Positions 36,931 to 50,509 of a stretch of 64,000 bases of DNA are shown one piece after another. The position numbers and the translations under genes were made by a program. Location of the stretch: the sequence record MN850651.1. The stretch is one strand, 5' to 3'. The stretch's first letter is position 1; each line of letters begins with the position of its first letter. This stretch comes from Escherichia phage moskry. Below the pieces are notes generated by a model. The model saw nothing but the letters and a program-made list of their open reading frames with translations. It was not told the origin of the DNA and made no database searches.

Positions 36931-37110
36931 TTATGCAACAACCTTTCCAAAACGAGAAGCATCATCTCGAAGAACTGCACGTGCTCTGCGCATGATCTTC
37001 TCAACTGTTTGATTAATACGAGAGTTCGACCCACGCTTGTATCCAGCGCGTTTAGAGGTACCATCAACTTTCTTTTCAACTGCTTTCTTTGCTTTAGCTT
37101 GTTTTGCCAT
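36931..37110 (-). CDS. Small highly basic protein, 59 aa (not in ORF track)
   Basis: Translated by hand: MAKQAKAKKAVEKKVDGTSKRAGYKRGSNSRINQTVEKIMRRARAVLRDDASRFGKVVA; followed by GGGAGAC-UUCG-GUCUCCC terminator hairpin; overlapping track ORFs 36894..37079(-) and 37009..37242(+) judged spurious; coordinates +/-2 nt. Confidence 0.6.
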   Translation of the reverse strand: MAKQAKAKKAVEKKVDGTSKRAGYKRGSNSRINQTVEKIMRRARAVLRDDASRFGKVVA

Positions 37111-37406
37111 TATAAATTCTCTTTAAATGAAAATGCAGGACTTATTGACATTGCCTGCGCAAGCCCTCAAGGGGAACATAGGTTTTGGATATTTAACGAC
37201 AGGATAACCATAAACCTCGTCATCATACCAACCACGACTTAGACAGATAACCTTTTTCTGACGCGTGATAGTATAAAATACATTCAAGAGGTACACCGTA
37301 AAACTGCCGGGGTCTTAAAACTATAATGATTCGCAAATCATTAATCAGACAGTTCGACGGCTCCTCGATTTTCTAGCCGCACTTAAGGTAGCGAATCACC
37401 TAAAAC

Positions 37407-37655
37407 TTATTTAAGGGTGATAACAAAATGACGTACTGCTTTACGAGCTGCAGAAGCCAAAGGCTTAGCATATTTCAGTTCATCTTTTGCTTCCAGTTCA
37501 GAAGCCAAAGCTGCCTGTACCGGGTTCAGATGTTTGAAATATCGCAGGATTTCAAGAGCTTCGGCTTCAACATCAATAGATGCGCCATAGTTTTCGTGGC
37601 CGTTATTCCATGCGTTTCGTTGCAGTTCAAGAGCGTGTTGTAATTGTTTAATCAT
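37407..37655 (-). CDS. rIII: rIII lysis inhibition accessory protein
   Basis: 82 aa, same length as T4 RIII; MIKQLQHALELQRNAWNNGHENYGASIDVEAEALEILRYFKHL. Confidence 0.95.
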   Translation of the reverse strand: MIKQLQHALELQRNAWNNGHENYGASIDVEAEALEILRYFKHLNPVQAALASELEAKDELKYAKPLASAARKAVRHFVITLK

Positions 37656-37771
37656 TTTAAATTCTCAATTCGAGATAATATTTAGTAGCCACGTTCGTCT
37701 GAATTTCACTTCCTTTCGACAAGTCTCTCAGTTGTAGGCTACCGCTTAGAAGAGTGTTCTCTTCATATAGT

Positions 37772-37779
37772 TATTTATA
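37772..37779 (-). promoter_or_regulatory. Late promoter (TATAAATA on minus strand) between 31 and rIII
   Basis: Plus strand TATTTATA immediately downstream of gene 31 stop. Confidence 0.5.
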
Positions 37780-38112
37780 TCACTTATAAAGACACGGAAT
37801 AGCTTTATAGTGGCATGTTACGAATTTCTGTTTAATTTCTTTAGGATGTTTAAGTCCCAAAGCCACAAATGGATGTGGAACATTTCGAATTTGTCCAACT
37901 GGTAGTGGAGTCAAATCACCGACTTCAACAAAACCTTTAGGAACATCAGGACCTACAGAATGAACTACACATAGTTCAGGAACTTCACCTTGAACACGTT
38001 TACCAATCACAAGTCCTGATTCGGTAACTTCTTCATCACCTGCTTGAGCGGGTTCAGAAACCAGAATAACATATTCACCAACAGCACGAATTGGGAGTTG
38101 TACTTCAGACAT
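37780..38112 (-). CDS. 31: Co-chaperonin gp31 (GroES analogue for capsid folding)
   Basis: 110 aa; [29 protein letters not shown] matches T4 gp31 (111 aa). Confidence 0.95.
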
Positions 38113-38140
38113 CTTATTTCCTTGTTGTTTGACGATAGAT

Positions 38141-38169
38141 TAATAATACCATACTATTCGTAAAGCATA
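38141..38169 (-). promoter_or_regulatory. Candidate MotA-dependent middle promoter upstream of gene 31
   Basis: Minus strand has ATGCTTTA (MotA-box-like) followed about 12 nt later by TATTAT. Confidence 0.4.
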
Positions 38170-38466
38170 TTACATAAGAAGCAAACGTTCTACTGGAGTA
38201 CCATCAACCGAAATTACTTTATCAAGGCGGAAAGAACGCCACTGACCTAACTCGGTATCGAATGCTCGAACTGATTCACGAGGTTCAGAACGAACTTCTG
38301 TTGATGGGTTACTATTTTCATATTTGACTTCAAGTTCATCGCGGGAGGCAAACATCGTACGAACATCACCGTTAGCCTTTTCAAATACAACACAATGAAC
38401 GCCTACAGACAGAATAGTTTTAATACGTTCACGAAGAACCATAGTTTCTCGTTCAGTTAAAATCAT
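38170..38466 (-). CDS. Hypothetical protein downstream of cd
   Basis: Track start 38478 is GTG overlapping cd; in-frame ATG at 38466 just after cd stop; about 98 aa. Confidence 0.65.
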   Translation of the reverse strand: MILTERETMVLRERIKTILSVGVHCVVFEKANGDVRTMFASRDELEVKYENSNPSTEVRSEPRESVRAFDTELGQWRSFRLDKVISVDGTPVERLLLM

Positions 38467-38467
38467 A

Positions 38468-39049
38468 TTATTCACCACAAAAGTTTCGGATTTGTTCCCA
38501 ATTCAGAGAACGAAGATTATTACGAGAGTACTGAATTACTTCAATACCGGCTTGTTTTAGAATGTCGGCCCAATTTTCAGGAGATCTGTCATATAATTCC
38601 GCGTATACAACCTTTTTAATACCTGACTGCGTAATAGCTTTAGTGCAATCAGGACACGGAGAAAGCGTAGTATATAACGTAGCACCTTCAATAGAATTAC
38701 CTTTACGAGCTGCAAACAAAATTGCGTTCAGTTCCGCATGGATTTCGTTATTAGCAGACCATGCACTATGAGCGGCCCGATGTTCTTTAGCCAAAACAAA
38801 ATTATCCACCCGTCCAAATGCTGTAGTGCCTTCTTTATGCCCAGCAACGATGACCGGGCTTGGTTTATTCTTCAACCAACCGTTTTCGGATGCATGTTCA
38901 CAACAGTTAACACCACCGGCCGGGCTACCGTTATACCCAGTAGAAATAATGCGCCCATCTTTTTCAATGACGGCACCAACTTTCCATGAACAACATTTTG
39001 ATTCTTGAGAAATCAGATATGCAATCTGAAGGTATGTGCTAGCTTTCAT
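38468..39049 (-). CDS. cd: dCMP deaminase
   Basis: 193 aa as in T4 Cd; MKASTYLQIAYLISQESKCCSWKVGAVIEK; zinc-binding HAE...PCxxC deaminase motifs. Confidence 0.95.
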   Translation of the reverse strand: MKASTYLQIAYLISQESKCCSWKVGAVIEKDGRIISTGYNGSPAGGVNCCEHASENGWLKNKPSPVIVAGHKEGTTAFGRVDNFVLAKEHRAAHSAWSANNEIHAELNAILFAARKGNSIEGATLYTTLSPCPDCTKAITQSGIKKVVYAELYDRSPENWADILKQAGIEVIQYSRNNLRSLNWEQIRNFCGE

Positions 39050-40041
39050 TATTGAACCTTATTAATATAAGTTAACAGCTCTTTAGTTTGTTCCCAACTG
39101 ATGCACGCATCGGTAACGGAAACGCCATAGGACATATTATCAGAAATTTTTTGATTTCCTTCATGTAGGAATGATTCTATCATAATTCCTTTGACCAAAT
39201 CATTAGCTGCTAAATTTTTACCAATACCAATTTGATTGCTATAATGCCCATCAGCGTTTGCATGGCTACAGTCAACCATTACATAATGATTCAGACCTAC
39301 TGCACTTGCTTTGTTAGAAGCTTCTTGAATATCAGAAGAATGATAGTTCGGGCCGTTGGTCCCGCCACGCAATACGATATGCGTATTCTGATTACCTTCA
39401 GCTTCAACAATGCCTACAGTACCATCGACGTCCATACCCATATACCGATGAGGCCAGGCGGCACTATACATCGCGTCTGTAGCTACTTTAATAGAACCAT
39501 TGGTTGCGTTCTTGAAGCCTACGCACATCGGTAGACCTGAAGCAATTTCACGATGTGTCTGACTTTCAGTCGTACGGGCGCCAATAGCAACCCATGAGAA
39601 AATACCAGAAAGATACTTAATCGTGAATGGGTCTAATACTTCAGTTGCTAATGGAAGTCCCATACGTAGAAGTTTACGACACAATGTTCGTGCAACTATA
39701 AGACCGTGGTTCATATCAAAACTTCCGTCAAGATATGGATCATTTACAAGACCTTTCCAACCTACGGTAGTTCGAGGCTTTTCAAAATAAACGCGCATCA
39801 CTAACAGAACATTAGGAAGACGAGTTTGAAGTTCAGCCAAACGTTTGCCGTATTCAACAGCAGCAATAGGGTCATGAATTGAACAAGGACCTACAACAAT
39901 AAGTTTGCGTGGGTCTTCACCGTTCATAATCGAATTAACTTGTTCGCGATGAGAAGCCACTTGTGATGCGTAAGCTTCCGACAAAGGAATAATCTCAGCC
40001 AGTTCTTTTGGAGAAATAAGTTTTCCGACGACAGGTAACAT
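39049..40041 (-). CDS. 3-deoxy-D-arabino-heptulosonate-7-phosphate (DAHP) synthase, class I (AroG/AroF/AroH family)
   Basis: 330 aa; near-identical blocks to E. coli AroG: LIVVGPCSIHDP, MRVYFEKPRTTVGWKGL, AIGARTTESQ, VGFKN, HIVLRGG, DCSHAN, MIESFLHEGNQ, SVTDACI; metal-binding Cys/His/Glu/Asp all present; AAGGA SD before ATG; not present in T4. Confidence 0.88.
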   Translation of the reverse strand: MLPVVGKLISPKELAEIIPLSEAYASQVASHREQVNSIMNGEDPRKLIVVGPCSIHDPIAAVEYGKRLAELQTRLPNVLLVMRVYFEKPRTTVGWKGLVNDPYLDGSFDMNHGLIVARTLCRKLLRMGLPLATEVLDPFTIKYLSGIFSWVAIGARTTESQTHREIASGLPMCVGFKNATNGSIKVATDAMYSAAWPHRYMGMDVDGTVGIVEAEGNQNTHIVLRGGTNGPNYHSSDIQEASNKASAVGLNHYVMVDCSHANADGHYSNQIGIGKNLAANDLVKGIMIESFLHEGNQKISDNMSYGVSVTDACISWEQTKELLTYINKVQ

Positions 40042-40161
40042 AACAATCCTTAGGAGATATAAACAGATTCTGATTCAACAATACCTTTAACCGGATTAGA
40101 CAGGCTAAGTTGGTAGTGCTCAGATTTATGACCATTCTCGATAGTAATGAGATAGCTCTCA

Positions 40162-40398
40162 TTATAGTGTTCCATATACTCGAGTTGCTTCAACAAGACC
40201 ATCACTGCCTAATTTAAGATTAGTAATTTGGTCGCCATCTTTAGGATTTACAATTATGAGAAAAGAACGTGGAGATTCTTGAATAACTCGTAATGTTGCA
40301 TCCTGGAAACGTTCAGACACTTTATTTATGAGTGCTTGAGCAAATTCTTTTACTTTAATCTGAAATTCGTGCACTGTAATTGGGTTTTCACTTAGCAT
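40162..40398 (-). CDS. Hypothetical early protein (cd.x-like)
   Basis: 78 aa ORF with early-type promoter upstream (about 40426-40457). Confidence 0.65.
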   Translation of the reverse strand: MLSENPITVHEFQIKVKEFAQALINKVSERFQDATLRVIQESPRSFLIIVNPKDGDQITNLKLGSDGLVEATRVYGTL

Positions 40399-40425
40399 TC
40401 TGTTTTCCTCATTGTGTTGGTAGAG

Positions 40426-40457
40426 TTATAGTATCACAACTCTACCATGTTGTAAAC
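40426..40457 (-). promoter_or_regulatory. Early-type promoter upstream of the 78-aa cd.x-like gene
   Basis: GTTTAC-N18-TACTATAA on minus strand. Confidence 0.55.
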
Positions 40458-40459
40458 CA

Positions 40460-40735
40460 TTAAATTGCTTTGCATTCAATTTTTTGTGTACCGAAATTGA
40501 TATCACATTGGATAACTAAATCGCCGTCAAGATCAAATACCACGATGACGTGTGCAGACCCAGGGAGAAGAGTAATAGCAATAGAATCTACTTGGTTTGG
40601 GAGCAAAGCATTGAGTACATGAGTTACTTGAGCATGAACTCTGAGTTCGGCTGCATTATCAAGCACTTCAAACATATTATTAGCAATAATCTGACTGAAG
40701 ACTACCTTTACAATTTCAGAATAAGTTGGGAACAT
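40460..40735 (-). CDS. Hypothetical early protein (cd.x-like)
   Basis: 91 aa ORF in compact array between pseT and cd. Confidence 0.65.
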   Translation of the reverse strand: MFPTYSEIVKVVFSQIIANNMFEVLDNAAELRVHAQVTHVLNALLPNQVDSIAITLLPGSAHVIVVFDLDGDLVIQCDINFGTQKIECKAI

Positions 40736-40742
40736 AATTACC

Positions 40743-40967
40743 TCAGTGCACAGTATTTACTTTAACTCGAACAACAAATCGCTCGGTTGGTTCACCTACA
40801 GGAACAAACTCTACATGATATTCGCCTTTGTAACGAGTATTCAGATCATTACGAATTCCTGCGAGTTTGTTGATTAATGTAGGACTCATATTAAGTCCCA
40901 CTAGTTTACGAAGCATTTTGTATGCTTCATCTTCGATTTCATGATGTTTATCGTACATAGTTTTCAT
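40743..40967 (-). CDS. Hypothetical early protein (cd.x-like)
   Basis: 74 aa ORF in compact array. Confidence 0.65.
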   Translation of the reverse strand: MKTMYDKHHEIEDEAYKMLRKLVGLNMSPTLINKLAGIRNDLNTRYKGEYHVEFVPVGEPTERFVVRVKVNTVH

Positions 40968-41138
40968 TTAACCATTCAATTGCCTGGTCGACGTTATCAA
41001 ATATACCACCGTCCAACCATTCTTCATGTTCATAGTCCAGCACATCAATACCGAACCGTCCATTTACTAAAGGCCATACTACAAACAAATATTCTTTATG
41101 CTGTTCGATGACCTCAATCACTTCATATAATCGTTTCA

Positions 41139-41139
<1 letters not shown>
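40948..41139 (-). CDS. Hypothetical early protein (cd.x-like)
   Basis: 63 aa ORF immediately downstream of pseT. Confidence 0.6.
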
Positions 41140-42225
<1,086 letters not shown>

Positions 42226-42226
<1 letters not shown>

Positions 42227-42525
42227 TATTTGATTCCTAAGAAAGCTTCAAGAATACGAATGTTGAGTTCGCGCCGGTCTTTATTAATTTCAGCAACGTT
42301 TTTATTAATTGACGTACTTCTAACGTTTGAAGAAATAAATTTAATCATATGACTTTTGAGTTGTTGCAAATCCAACCCTTTTTCTTTAGCAGCTTTACGA
42401 AGAGCTTTACCTGCTTCATCTAGTGCTTTTGCCGCATCTTTATCATAATTGCCAAGTGACATTCCGCGGCAGATATCAATATACTCATCAGACCGTTTGA
42501 TGTAATTCTCTAGTAATGTTTTCAT
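42226..42525 (-). CDS. Hypothetical protein
   Basis: 99 aa ORF. Confidence 0.65.
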
Positions 42526-42582
42526 TTAGATTTCCTCAATTATCCATAGGAGCATTATACTCTGCTCCCGAGAGTTTGTAAA

Positions 42583-42807
42583 CTATTTTACTAAAGATTC
42601 AATATACTCATGAAGAGCTTTAGTCGCTACTGCCCACTTATTCTGATATTCATTTTTCAGATTAGCACGAGACTGAACTAACAAGCGGTCATTAGTCGGA
42701 GGCAAAGATTCTAATCGTTGAATCTGGCGTCCATAAATCATAGCCGCCATTTCAGATTCATAGATAAGCCCTTTAATGTATTCATGCTGTTCTTTAGTCA
42801 TTGGCAT
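42583..42807 (-). CDS. Hypothetical protein
   Basis: 74 aa ORF. Confidence 0.65.
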   Translation of the reverse strand: MPMTKEQHEYIKGLIYESEMAAMIYGRQIQRLESLPPTNDRLLVQSRANLKNEYQNKWAVATKALHEYIESLVK

Positions 42808-43088
42808 TTTTCCTCTTTTAAACCACTACGATAATAACATAACATAGTCTTCTGGTCATGTATATATCTTTTTACGTCGTTTAACCAGATACGAAATTCT
42901 TGAGAGTCTTCAAATGGCATTCCAACCCACGGATTACCATCAATAACCTTTACTTGCCATTTCTGGTTGTATTCGGAAATAGGCGTAGGCCATGAAGGAT
43001 GTAAAGTTTCTTTAGGGCTTACTGGCACATCCTGAGTACATCCAACTAGGAGACCAATAGATAATACAGCCACAGTTAATTTAATCAT
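42798..43088 (-). CDS. Outer-membrane spanin subunit (o-spanin lipoprotein)
   Basis: 96 aa; signal peptide with lipobox LLVGC; C-terminal Cys; immediately downstream of and overlapping the i-spanin gene. Confidence 0.8.
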   Translation of the reverse strand: MIKLTVAVLSIGLLVGCTQDVPVSPKETLHPSWPTPISEYNQKWQVKVIDGNPWVGMPFEDSQEFRIWLNDVKRYIHDQKTMLCYYRSGLKEEKCQ

Positions 43089-43441
43089 TCTGAGAGCTTC
43101 CTGAGGTCTTCTGCAAAGGAATCGAAGGACCTGTTGATTTGTTTTTCGACCAATCCTGGCTTACTTGCCACCACGTTCTTCTTCTTCGAATCCTTACGGA
43201 GCTTTTCATTTTCAGCCTTAAGTTGGTCAACTAAAACACGGTTCTTATAAGTCATTTCTTCGATTGACTGATATTGAATCTTGAAGTCGTCTAATACTTT
43301 AGCATTGTTTTTAGCAGTCTCTTTAACAGAAGCCAATTCAGTATTCAGCGAATCGACTTTATGGTTCAGAAATGCTATTGTTACAGTAGCAACAACTGCA
43401 AAAGCTGCCACTACAATATATGATGCATTTACTTTAAGCAT
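43085..43441 (-). CDS. Inner-membrane spanin subunit (i-spanin)
   Basis: 118 aa; N-terminal transmembrane helix YIVVAAFAVVATVTIAFL then coiled-coil-like periplasmic domain; two-component spanin architecture. Confidence 0.8.
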   Translation of the reverse strand: MLKVNASYIVVAAFAVVATVTIAFLNHKVDSLNTELASVKETAKNNAKVLDDFKIQYQSIEEMTYKNRVLVDQLKAENEKLRKDSKKKNVVASKPGLVEKQINRSFDSFAEDLRKLSE

Positions 43442-43929
43442 GTTTGAATAATCTCAATGATTTCGTCTCGGGATAATCCATTGATAAGAACTGTTTTAGG
43501 CCCGTCAGTTTGGATTTTGTATGATTCAAACAATACACACAACTCTTCTGCTGTATGATATGGGCTTGAGATTCCGAGACGGTTGAATTTGTCGGTAAGA
43601 GGGTCGCAAATAATATAGAATTTGATACCTGCGATATGTACGTTTGGTTGACTAATATTAATGAACACATTAGCGTCATATTTAGTCAAATTGTTTTGAA
43701 GAAATTCTACCATAGCATTAACTGCTTCTGGCATCGCTTCGCGTTTCTCTTCAGCGTATCGGGTTGAATACTCTTTTTGTTTTACTTTCTTTTTAAGATT
43801 TTTGGCCAGTGTAACACGTAGGTCAGTAAGATAACCAACTGGACGTCCTTTCTTAAAGACCCGGATTCCGTCAGTTGTGTCTCCAAAAGCGTTTACGACC
43901 ATATCGTTAGTAATCAATTGCATATTCAT
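43429..43929 (-). CDS. alc: Alc, inhibitor of host transcription on dC-containing DNA
   Basis: Track ORF 180 aa; internal start MNMQLITNDMVVNAFGDTTDGIR with GAGGAG SD; early promoter lies downstream of the track start, supporting the shorter form (about 166 aa; T4 Alc 167 aa). Confidence 0.85.
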   Translation of the reverse strand: MNMQLITNDMVVNAFGDTTDGIRVFKKGRPVGYLTDLRVTLAKNLKKKVKQKEYSTRYAEEKREAMPEAVNAMVEFLQNNLTKYDANVFINISQPNVHIAGIKFYIICDPLTDKFNRLGISSPYHTAEELCVLFESYKIQTDGPKTVLINGLSRDEIIEIIQTCLK

Positions 43930-49648: not shown

Positions 49649-50509
49649 TTATACCGCCATTTTAGCTTTGATAGCTGGATGAGATTCGTAATTTTTAAGA
49701 ACGAAATCAGAATGTGTCATCGTTCCAGTAACCCAGTCCATTTGGATTTTTGTAGGCCAATTCTCAAAATTACTAGGCCAATTAATTTCAAGAGAACATA
49801 ACTCTTTAGGTTCACGACGAAGAACTTCTTTGCATTGTTCTACATGATTGCTGTAGATATGCGTGTTGCCGCCTGAGAACACTAAATCACCTGGGATAAG
49901 GTTACACATCTTCGCTACAATATGCGTCAAGGCAGCGTACGAGGCAATGTTGAACGGCAGGCCCAAGAAAACATCTACACTGCGTTGATACCATTGTAAA
50001 TCAAGATGCCCATTACGCACATTAAATTGATAGAACATATGACAAGGAGGAAGAGCCATTTGGTCAATTTCGGCAGGGTTCCATGCAGAAACTATTTGAC
50101 GACGATCATTAGGAAGAGCTTTAATACGGTCGATAGTTTTGACCAATTGGTCTACACCACCAAAATCACGCCATTGCTTACCATAAATAGGACCAAGTTC
50201 GCCGCTATGATATCCAAGGTCTTTTGCCTGATTTTCATAGTTGTCGTCCCAAATAGTTTTACCTTGAATAAGACTACCATGAGTACGAATACGCAAATCA
50301 TTAACATTGGTAGAACCAGACATGAACCACAGTAACTCGGCAATACAAGCTTTCCATGCAAGCTTCTTGGTTGTTACTGCAGGAAATCCTTTAGTAAGGT
50401 CCCAACGCAATTTAGTTCCGAATAGAGCAATTGTTCCTGTGCCTGTTCGGTCGTCTGTTTCGTAGCCATTTTCTAAGATATCTTTAATCAGGTATTGGTA
50501 TTGTTTCAT
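49649..50509 (-). CDS. td: Thymidylate synthase (intron-less)
   Basis: 286 aa continuous ORF, same length as spliced T4 TS; motifs LPPCH and DRRQIVSAWNP; no intron or I-TevI. Confidence 0.96.
   Translation of the reverse strand: MKQYQYLIKDILENGYETDDRTGTGTIALFGTKLRWDLTKGFPAVTTKKLAWKACIAELLWFMSGSTNVNDLRIRTHGSLIQGKTIWDDNYENQAKDLGYHSGELGPIYGKQWRDFGGVDQLVKTIDRIKALPNDRRQIVSAWNPAEIDQMALPPCHMFYQFNVRNGHLDLQWYQRSVDVFLGLPFNIASYAALTHIVAKMCNLIPGDLVFSGGNTHIYSNHVEQCKEVLRREPKELCSLEINWPSNFENWPTKIQMDWVTGTMTHSDFVLKNYESHPAIKAKMAV

Follow-up and report, generated by a model that had tools for sequence, protein, structure and literature searches.

A phage-encoded DAHP synthase with a rebuilt inhibitor site, predicted to be insensitive to feedback by host amino acids

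What does a lytic coliphage do with an enzyme of aromatic biosynthesis, and would this enzyme still obey the amino acids that restrain its host counterparts? [quoted passage not shown] All coordinates refer to the window, i.e. the whole stretch of 64,000 nt that was analysed; the gene lies at 39049..40041 on the minus strand. Its start codon is ATG, with no further in-frame start upstream, because each ORF is called from the earliest start codon that follows a stop. The assignment of the 330-aa product to the type I-alpha, AroF-like enzymes relies on the ORF itself, on Pfam, NCBIfam and PDB comparisons, on PHROG 5045 and on an AlphaFold (AF2) model. The explanation favoured here, with moderate confidence, is that of an early-expressed, active and feedback-insensitive DAHPS serving as an auxiliary metabolic gene; its activity, its loss of feedback, its timing of expression and its relevant downstream product are what we infer from the evidence below.

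Family membership is the first point to settle. All six motifs quoted in an earlier note, made from the sequence alone, are present in the translation (GPCSIHDP, KPRTTVGWKGL, GARTTESQ, VGFKN, CSHAN and ESFLHEGNQ), and a Pfam profile search matches the protein to DAHP_synth_1 with E=6.8e-75. Among the NCBIfam models, the protein reaches 427.2 bits on TIGR00034, the aroFGH equivalog (cutoff 173.2), and 454.7 on NF009395 (cutoff 343); it stays below the cutoffs of the AroG equivalog NF006723 (363 versus 568 bits) and of the AroH equivalog NF009396 (385 versus 463). Among solved structures, E. coli AroF ranks first (6agm, E=5.7e-105) and the Neisseria, Francisella and E. coli AroG enzymes come next; identity by alignment is 51% to AroF, 47% to AroG and 44% to AroH. 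The label 'AroG-family' given in the earlier note is thus valid only loosely, in the sense of class I-alpha, since AroF is nearer and the scores fall under the AroG and AroH equivalog cutoffs. On the profile of PHROG 5045, whose category is 'moron, auxiliary metabolic gene and host takeover', residues 1-330 align with positions 8-337 of 341 (E=5.1e-182, 605 bits).

The residues required for catalysis are conserved. The four metal ligands announced in the earlier note are indeed intact (C53, H260, E289 and D311, equivalent to AroG C61, H268, E302 and D326), in columns that are invariant across AroG, AroF and AroH and across 120 homologues. Residues for phosphoenolpyruvate (PEP) and erythrose-4-phosphate (E4P), namely R83, K88, R90, T91, R156, K177 and R225, also occupy invariant columns. 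AroG C61, R92, K97, R99, T100, R165, K186, R234, H268, E302 and D326 are all kept in the moskry protein and in 24/24 sequences of the phage clade described below. The AF2 model, built from a 46-sequence alignment, has a mean predicted local distance difference test score of 91.8 and template modelling (TM) scores of 0.94-0.96 to solved DAHP synthases (AroG and Neisseria DAH7PS). It displays a (beta/alpha)8 barrel with an N-terminal extension and a beta6a/beta6b hairpin (strands 198-203 and 209-214); the model is a confirmation of the fold, not a resolution of pocket chemistry. From these features, the protein is apparently a type I-alpha DAHP synthase that depends on metal and is competent for catalysis.

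A different reaction, that of 3-deoxy-D-manno-octulosonate 8-phosphate (KDO8P) synthase or another aldose-phosphate condensation, has to be considered because PF00793 includes KDO8P synthases too. KdsA, on that other branch of PF00793, shares with the phage protein the TIM-barrel superfamily and the PEP chemistry, but the N-terminal extension and the beta6a/6b hairpin of the phage protein are specific to DAHPS. Moreover, its NCBIfam matches at E<=0.001 are DAHPS models alone, with no KDO8P synthase model among them, its score on the aroFGH equivalog is 427 bits, and neither the E4P-phosphate motif KPRT nor any PEP or metal ligand is lost. A KDO8P synthase identity, the outcome that the earlier note had set against its own assignment, was dropped on the NCBIfam result. 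As to a functionless passenger gene in decay, phage RB69, the type Mosigvirus, manages without DAHPS; against decay, the ligands are intact, the reading frame is intact in 212 phage records, and the ratio of nonsynonymous to synonymous substitutions (dN/dS) is 0.16-0.20 versus other phage genera, dS being saturated, which indicates that the gene is under purifying selection. That the protein performs another reaction, or none, is considered very improbable.

What separates the phage enzymes from their bacterial relatives is found in the inhibitor site. AroG positions were mapped on a 124-sequence alignment, and an unbiased scan retained the columns that are at least 90% fixed in the phage clade and at least 85% fixed in 98 bacterial neighbours, with differing residues. 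Only 7 of 328 columns are phage-diagnostic in this sense. AroG P150 becomes I in the phages, Q151 becomes K, D155 becomes G, L156 becomes I, S180 becomes P, F209 becomes Y and T223 becomes A. The seven columns (7/7) lie in three inhibitor-site segments, and none in the catalytic core. At P150, Q151, L156, S180, F209 and T223 the phage residue occurs in 0/98 bacterial neighbours, and Gly occurs at D155 in 2/98. The N-terminus is 8 residues shorter than that of AroG, as the earlier note had it, and 9 shorter than that of AroF. In all phage sequences, 48-52 residues precede the catalytic Cys, versus at least 58 in bacteria, and therefore the stretch bearing AroG Asp6/Asp7 is missing. Alignment to AroG, AroF and AroH shows the canonical inhibitor residues replaced or absent: at D/N6 and D/N7 the moskry protein has nothing, and P150, Q151, S180 and F209 are replaced by I, K, P and Y. 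This pattern extends to the whole phage clade, and the canonical residues are retained by the 98 bacterial neighbours.

Several of these positions are those of known feedback-resistant variants. In AroG, resistance is conferred by P150L, S180F, F209A/S, L175D, L179A and V221A; the main chain of bound Phe or Tyr is contacted by Q151 (AroF Q152) and S180 (AroF S181), and a D155 salt bridge stabilises the region in AroG (PMC9529685). The Phe site in 1KFL includes D6 and D7, and the resistance of the D6G-D7A variant exceeds that of S180F (PMC6520568). Comparison with the literature also implicates Q151 in Phe inhibition of AroG. Because the contacts that were lost bind the backbone of the amino acid, which is common to the three inhibitors, insensitivity to Tyr, Phe and Trp is predicted for the canonical binding mode, and the phage DAHPS is probably insensitive to host amino-acid feedback. 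The guess of a deregulated enzyme, which the earlier note had drawn from the truncation, is strengthened by the replacement of P150, Q151 and S180 in the phage clade. The phage substitutions occur at the same positions as those of engineered feedback-resistant AroG/AroF (P150L, S180F, F209A/S and D6G-D7A as above, and Q151 variants), but they are natural, combined in one protein, made of other residues (I, K, P, Y) and fixed in the clade.

Part of the same comparison speaks for an ordinary AroF-like isoenzyme, still inhibited by Tyr or another aromatic amino acid and beneficial through extra copies after host shut-off. AroF is the closest E. coli sequence, Pro at AroG-147 and Gly at AroG-211 are kept, as in Tyr-sensitive enzymes, and the N-terminal extension is for the most part still there, as is the beta6a/beta6b hairpin. 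Likeness to AroF (6AGM) extends to the fold and the catalytic residues; the phage enzyme differs in having lost the first 9 residues, in the replacement of AroF P151, Q152 and S181 by I, K and P, in a 5-residue deletion between H268 and E302, in a spacing from E302 to D326 that is shorter by 2-3 residues, and in a shorter C-terminus. Towards AroG (1KFL, 1QR7), a TM score of ~0.95 and identical catalytic residues are opposed to the missed equivalog cutoff and to the differing inhibitor-site residues. A Tyr-regulated isoenzyme is unlikely: the backbone-binding Q151 and S180, and also P150 and the D6/D7 N-terminus, are changed in every phage sequence, and single changes at P150, at S180 or in the D6/D7 pair make AroG resistant, with Q151 implicated as well.

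The rebuilt site is also well conserved. Within the phage clade, mean entropy is 0.59 for the inhibitor segments and 0.46 for the pocket positions, versus 0.96 for the whole protein. Since the segments are more conserved than the whole protein, the site has been rebuilt and kept, not decayed, and it may serve a locked-active conformation or a new effector. The pocket may thus have been re-targeted, with its I-K...G-I...P...Y...A set binding, for example, an anionic intermediate of the pathway (chorismate or prephenate), a nucleotide or a phage factor. Such a change of ligand would agree with conservation in the phage protein being highest in the remodelled segments, and the loss of D6/D7 together with the gain of Lys at 151 would favour an anionic ligand without an alpha-ammonium group. 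However, structural coupling to the active site and to the dimer interface could account for the conservation equally well; re-targeting is considered doubtful. A slim chance is also given to the idea that the phage clade is a naturally evolved new regulatory class, in which the pocket was converted under strong purifying selection to a site for another effector or to a permanent 'on' lock. If true, entry into the shikimate pathway would be coupled to the phage programme and not to host aromatic amino acid pools.

Several observations weigh against an early-expressed, feedback-insensitive auxiliary enzyme. The low entropy of the rebuilt site fits a continuing role, with another ligand or conformation, better than plain disablement. 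Given the kept Gly at AroG-211, typical of Tyr-sensitive enzymes, some Tyr binding may persist in another pose. DAHPS is dispensable in laboratory conditions, because RB69 grows although it lacks the gene. The number of sigma-70-like sites in the region, and that of terminators too, is not above shuffled expectation. Finally, a study of the enzymology, complementation, genetics, transcript or protein of any phage DAHPS was not found in the searchable literature.

With these points weighed, the active and feedback-insensitive auxiliary enzyme is still the favoured explanation, and its course can be outlined. The cd.2-DAHPS-cd array would be transcribed early, from a promoter conserved with that of T4 between cd.3 and cd.2; the phage enzyme would condense PEP and E4P to DAHP, so that the host shikimate pathway would gain capacity at its committed step while the cell is infected. 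With a rebuilt inhibitor site, it would escape canonical shut-off by Tyr, Phe or Trp, and carbon flow to chorismate would persist while the host enzymes are feedback-inhibited or no longer resynthesised. The product that matters would be aromatic amino acids, consumed in the burst of phage protein synthesis, or possibly chorismate-derived precursors of folate or quinones. A T4-like phage lineage seems to have evolved, and long kept, a DAHPS altered at several positions that metabolic engineers mutate singly. If this is confirmed, lytic coliphages would be seen to override the feedback by which amino acids control a biosynthetic pathway of the host, and a natural, stable, feedback-resistant enzyme would become available for the production of aromatic compounds. 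DAHPS-positive Mosigvirus and DAHPS-negative RB69, which are related and not isogenic, would then offer a comparison of the worth of the gene.

As a phage gene, DAHPS is already known and widely annotated, in the genomes of more than 100 related phages. Over the surrounding 6 kb, identity is 99.7% with Escherichia phage vB_EQ1 and 97-99% with ~150 Mosigvirus-type T4-like phages. Of 50,697 phage records compared by translated search, 212 contain the protein, 97 of them at >=99% identity, and the copy of Escherichia phage vB_EcoM_MM02 is 100% identical. The gene is not new, because many of the 212 records carry the GenBank label phospho-2-dehydro-3-deoxyheptonate aldolase, because PHROG 5045 exists, and because it is mentioned in passing in two papers, as ORF 64 of Mosigvirus phiC120 (PMC8022965) and as a proposed amino-acid auxiliary metabolic gene of the Klebsiella Kanagawavirus KLB31 (PMC11845039). 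The annotated DAHPS of T4-like phages (PHROG 5045; e.g. vB_EcoM_MM02, Shigella phage JK45/Shf125875, Edwardsiella phage PEi20 and Klebsiella phage PhiKpNIH-6) is the same gene in the same slot upstream of cd, and no sequence-level difference sets the moskry copy apart. The value added here is a clade-wide signature limited to the regulatory site, together with a cassette scar, which yields a specific and cheaply testable biochemical prediction. Phage AV110 matches the moskry window at 99.5% identity over a 6-kb stretch, and its annotation shows no other shikimate genes in the 46 kb around DAHPS. Some matches in the phage collection are bacterial contigs, such as AGRM01000002.1 of Salmonella enterica (691 kb, 52% identity), and a cluster at 99% identity (P0001) carries the label '[Escherichia coli]' at NCBI.

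Where, then, does the gene come from? As to host or phage neighbours, a point raised in the earlier note, the protein nests in a phage clade. Its 24 closest non-redundant homologues (55-99% identity, 319-343 aa) belong to T4-like phages or to contigs with T4-like neighbours, and bacterial enzymes come next (52-54% identity, 341-388 aa). Neighbour-joining (NJ) analysis of 123 sequences recovers the phage enzymes as a monophyletic clade in 100/100 bootstraps. Enterobacterial AroF is its sister in the full NJ tree, yet this relationship is weakly supported (25/60 bootstraps), and by raw distance a metagenomic group is marginally nearer to the phage clade than enterobacterial AroF. A recent capture from E. 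coli was rejected on the 44-51% identity to AroH, AroG and AroF, the 52-54% identity of the nearest bacteria, the long stem and the 100/100 support.

The slot of the gene is constant across at least five T4-like genera. DAHPS is found by cd in Kanagawavirus PEi20, Marfavirus PhiKpNIH-6, Bragavirus vB_SdyM_006 and Gualtarvirus PSTRCR_121, as in Mosigvirus; in these four other genera it either immediately precedes cd or has a homing endonuclease or a small ORF between itself and cd. Its divergence parallels that of cd and of gp31. A divergent T4-like phage contig that encodes DAHPS (P0022, L011 2517-3515; ENA metagenome contigs, one of them from a crustacean metagenome) also bears Phage_T4_Y05Q and a pseT-like neighbour. 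Its site signature is intermediate, with Pro at AroG-150 and 182, yet K151, P180, Y209 and a short N-terminus.

Within Mosigvirus, the history is less simple. A cassette of 1,094 bp (39053..40146, minus strand) is absent from RB69, as judged by blastn against RB69, by the junction sequences and by the RB69 annotation, in which cd.2 abuts cd; the stretch compared is L010 7743-8503 of RB69 versus moskry 39053-40146. DAHPS is therefore a presence/absence polymorphism within Mosigvirus. The cassette is flanked by an imperfect 14-nt direct repeat (CTAGCTTTCATTAT / ATAGCTCTCATTAT), present as a single copy in RB69. The annotated cd of RB69 ends early, with 169 aa ('...ADILKPSWY') versus 193 aa in moskry.

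At its upstream end, the cassette contains a second copy of the C-terminal half of cd.2, a remnant at 40050..40166 (minus strand) that matches positions 41-76 of phrog_1504, the family of cd.2, with E=1.6e-5. These 117 nt lie inside a small ORF of 51 aa (40050..40205, minus strand), between cd.2 and DAHPS. The remnant is 53% identical to cd.2 of PhiKpNIH-6 (Marfavirus), 46% to cd.2 of PEi20 (Kanagawavirus) and 27% to the resident cd.2; PhiKpNIH-6 and PEi20 both bear DAHPS. Vertical descent with simple loss in RB69, suggested by the 14-nt repeat, was dropped as the sole explanation since the cassette holds a foreign-type cd.2 fragment. Import between T4-like phages fits better, because this fragment resembles Marfavirus/Kanagawavirus cd.2 over the resident cd.2. 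The 51-aa ORF looks like a recombination scar of the import of the DAHPS cassette. On the simplest reading, recombination at the cd.2/cd junction would have brought 'cd.2-fragment + DAHPS' into this Mosigvirus lineage, the donor being a different T4-like phage that carried DAHPS.

Would the gene be expressed? Along the minus strand, pseT is followed by three small ORFs (cd.5/cd.4/cd.3 homologues) and then by cd.2, the 51-aa ORF, DAHPS, cd, 31.1, gene 31 and rIII. The position 'between cd and pseT' proposed in the earlier note is broadly right; more exactly, the arrangement is cd.2-DAHPS-cd, with the cd.3-cd.5 homologues and pseT farther upstream. T4, as that note stated, has no DAHPS in this slot, and its record shows cd.1 there. 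The landmarks, all on the minus strand, are cd (38468..39049), the dCMP deaminase gene directly downstream of DAHPS (Pfam dCMP_cyt_deam_1, 1.6e-26, and annotation), the resident cd.2 homologue (40162..40398; DUF7320, identified by Pfam, phrog_1504 and annotation) and, upstream, the polynucleotide kinase/phosphatase gene pseT (41139..42038; Pfam HAD_PNKP, 1.9e-58, and AAA_33).

Translation signals surround the gene. A Shine-Dalgarno sequence AAGGA (40047..40051, minus strand), read from the sequence, stands 5 nt before the DAHPS ATG, bearing out the ribosome-binding site claimed earlier, and shares bases with the TAA (40052..40050) that ends the small ORF upstream. At the other end, the ORF ends of DAHPS and cd meet in a TAATG stop/start overlap (39047..39051, minus strand), and translational coupling of the two genes is possible.

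A sigma-70 early-promoter-like site (TTTACA-17-TACTAT with TG) lies in the cd.3/cd.2 gap at 40428..40456 on the minus strand. It came from a scan and from alignment with T4 and RB69; because the scan counts do not exceed shuffled expectation, the early-promoter call rests on T4 homology, not on the scan. The gap aligns closely with the T4 gap bearing the early promoter Pe133295 (a misc_feature of the T4 record), the site reading GTTTACAACATGGTAGAGTTGTGATACTAT in moskry and GTTTACTTTACGGTAGAGTTGTGATATTAT in T4. Gene order and this T4-aligned region agree with the co-directional early array described in the earlier note. No minus-strand terminator-like site was found in 37000-43500, hence none between the early-promoter-like site and cd. 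A pattern search further locates a MotA-box middle-promoter-like motif in pseT, upstream of the array (41422..41446, minus strand). From the conserved promoter region, the lack of a terminator-like site and the MotA-like motif, early or middle expression of DAHPS together with cd is a reasonable inference.

Motifs of the MotA-box type (TGCTTYA, 11-13 nt, TANNNT) number 11 in the window versus 1.9 expected, and are on the minus strand only. Positions among the 11 are 1774, 3074, 16352, 21791, 25966, 38143, 41422, 50562, 54530 and 57673, and the motif at 38143-38167 is upstream of gene 31. The gp31.1 homologue (38170-38478, minus strand) has a WYL_2 SH3 beta-barrel (Pfam, 4.5e-10); some GenBank records, e.g. 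that of AV110, call it 'tail fibers protein', which is probably a misannotation. Scans of the window returned no Rfam families, including group I introns, and no tRNAs. The thymidylate synthase gene td is one intact ORF of 286 aa (49649-50509, minus strand); in AV110, td is annotated as two pieces with a homing-endonuclease gene between them.

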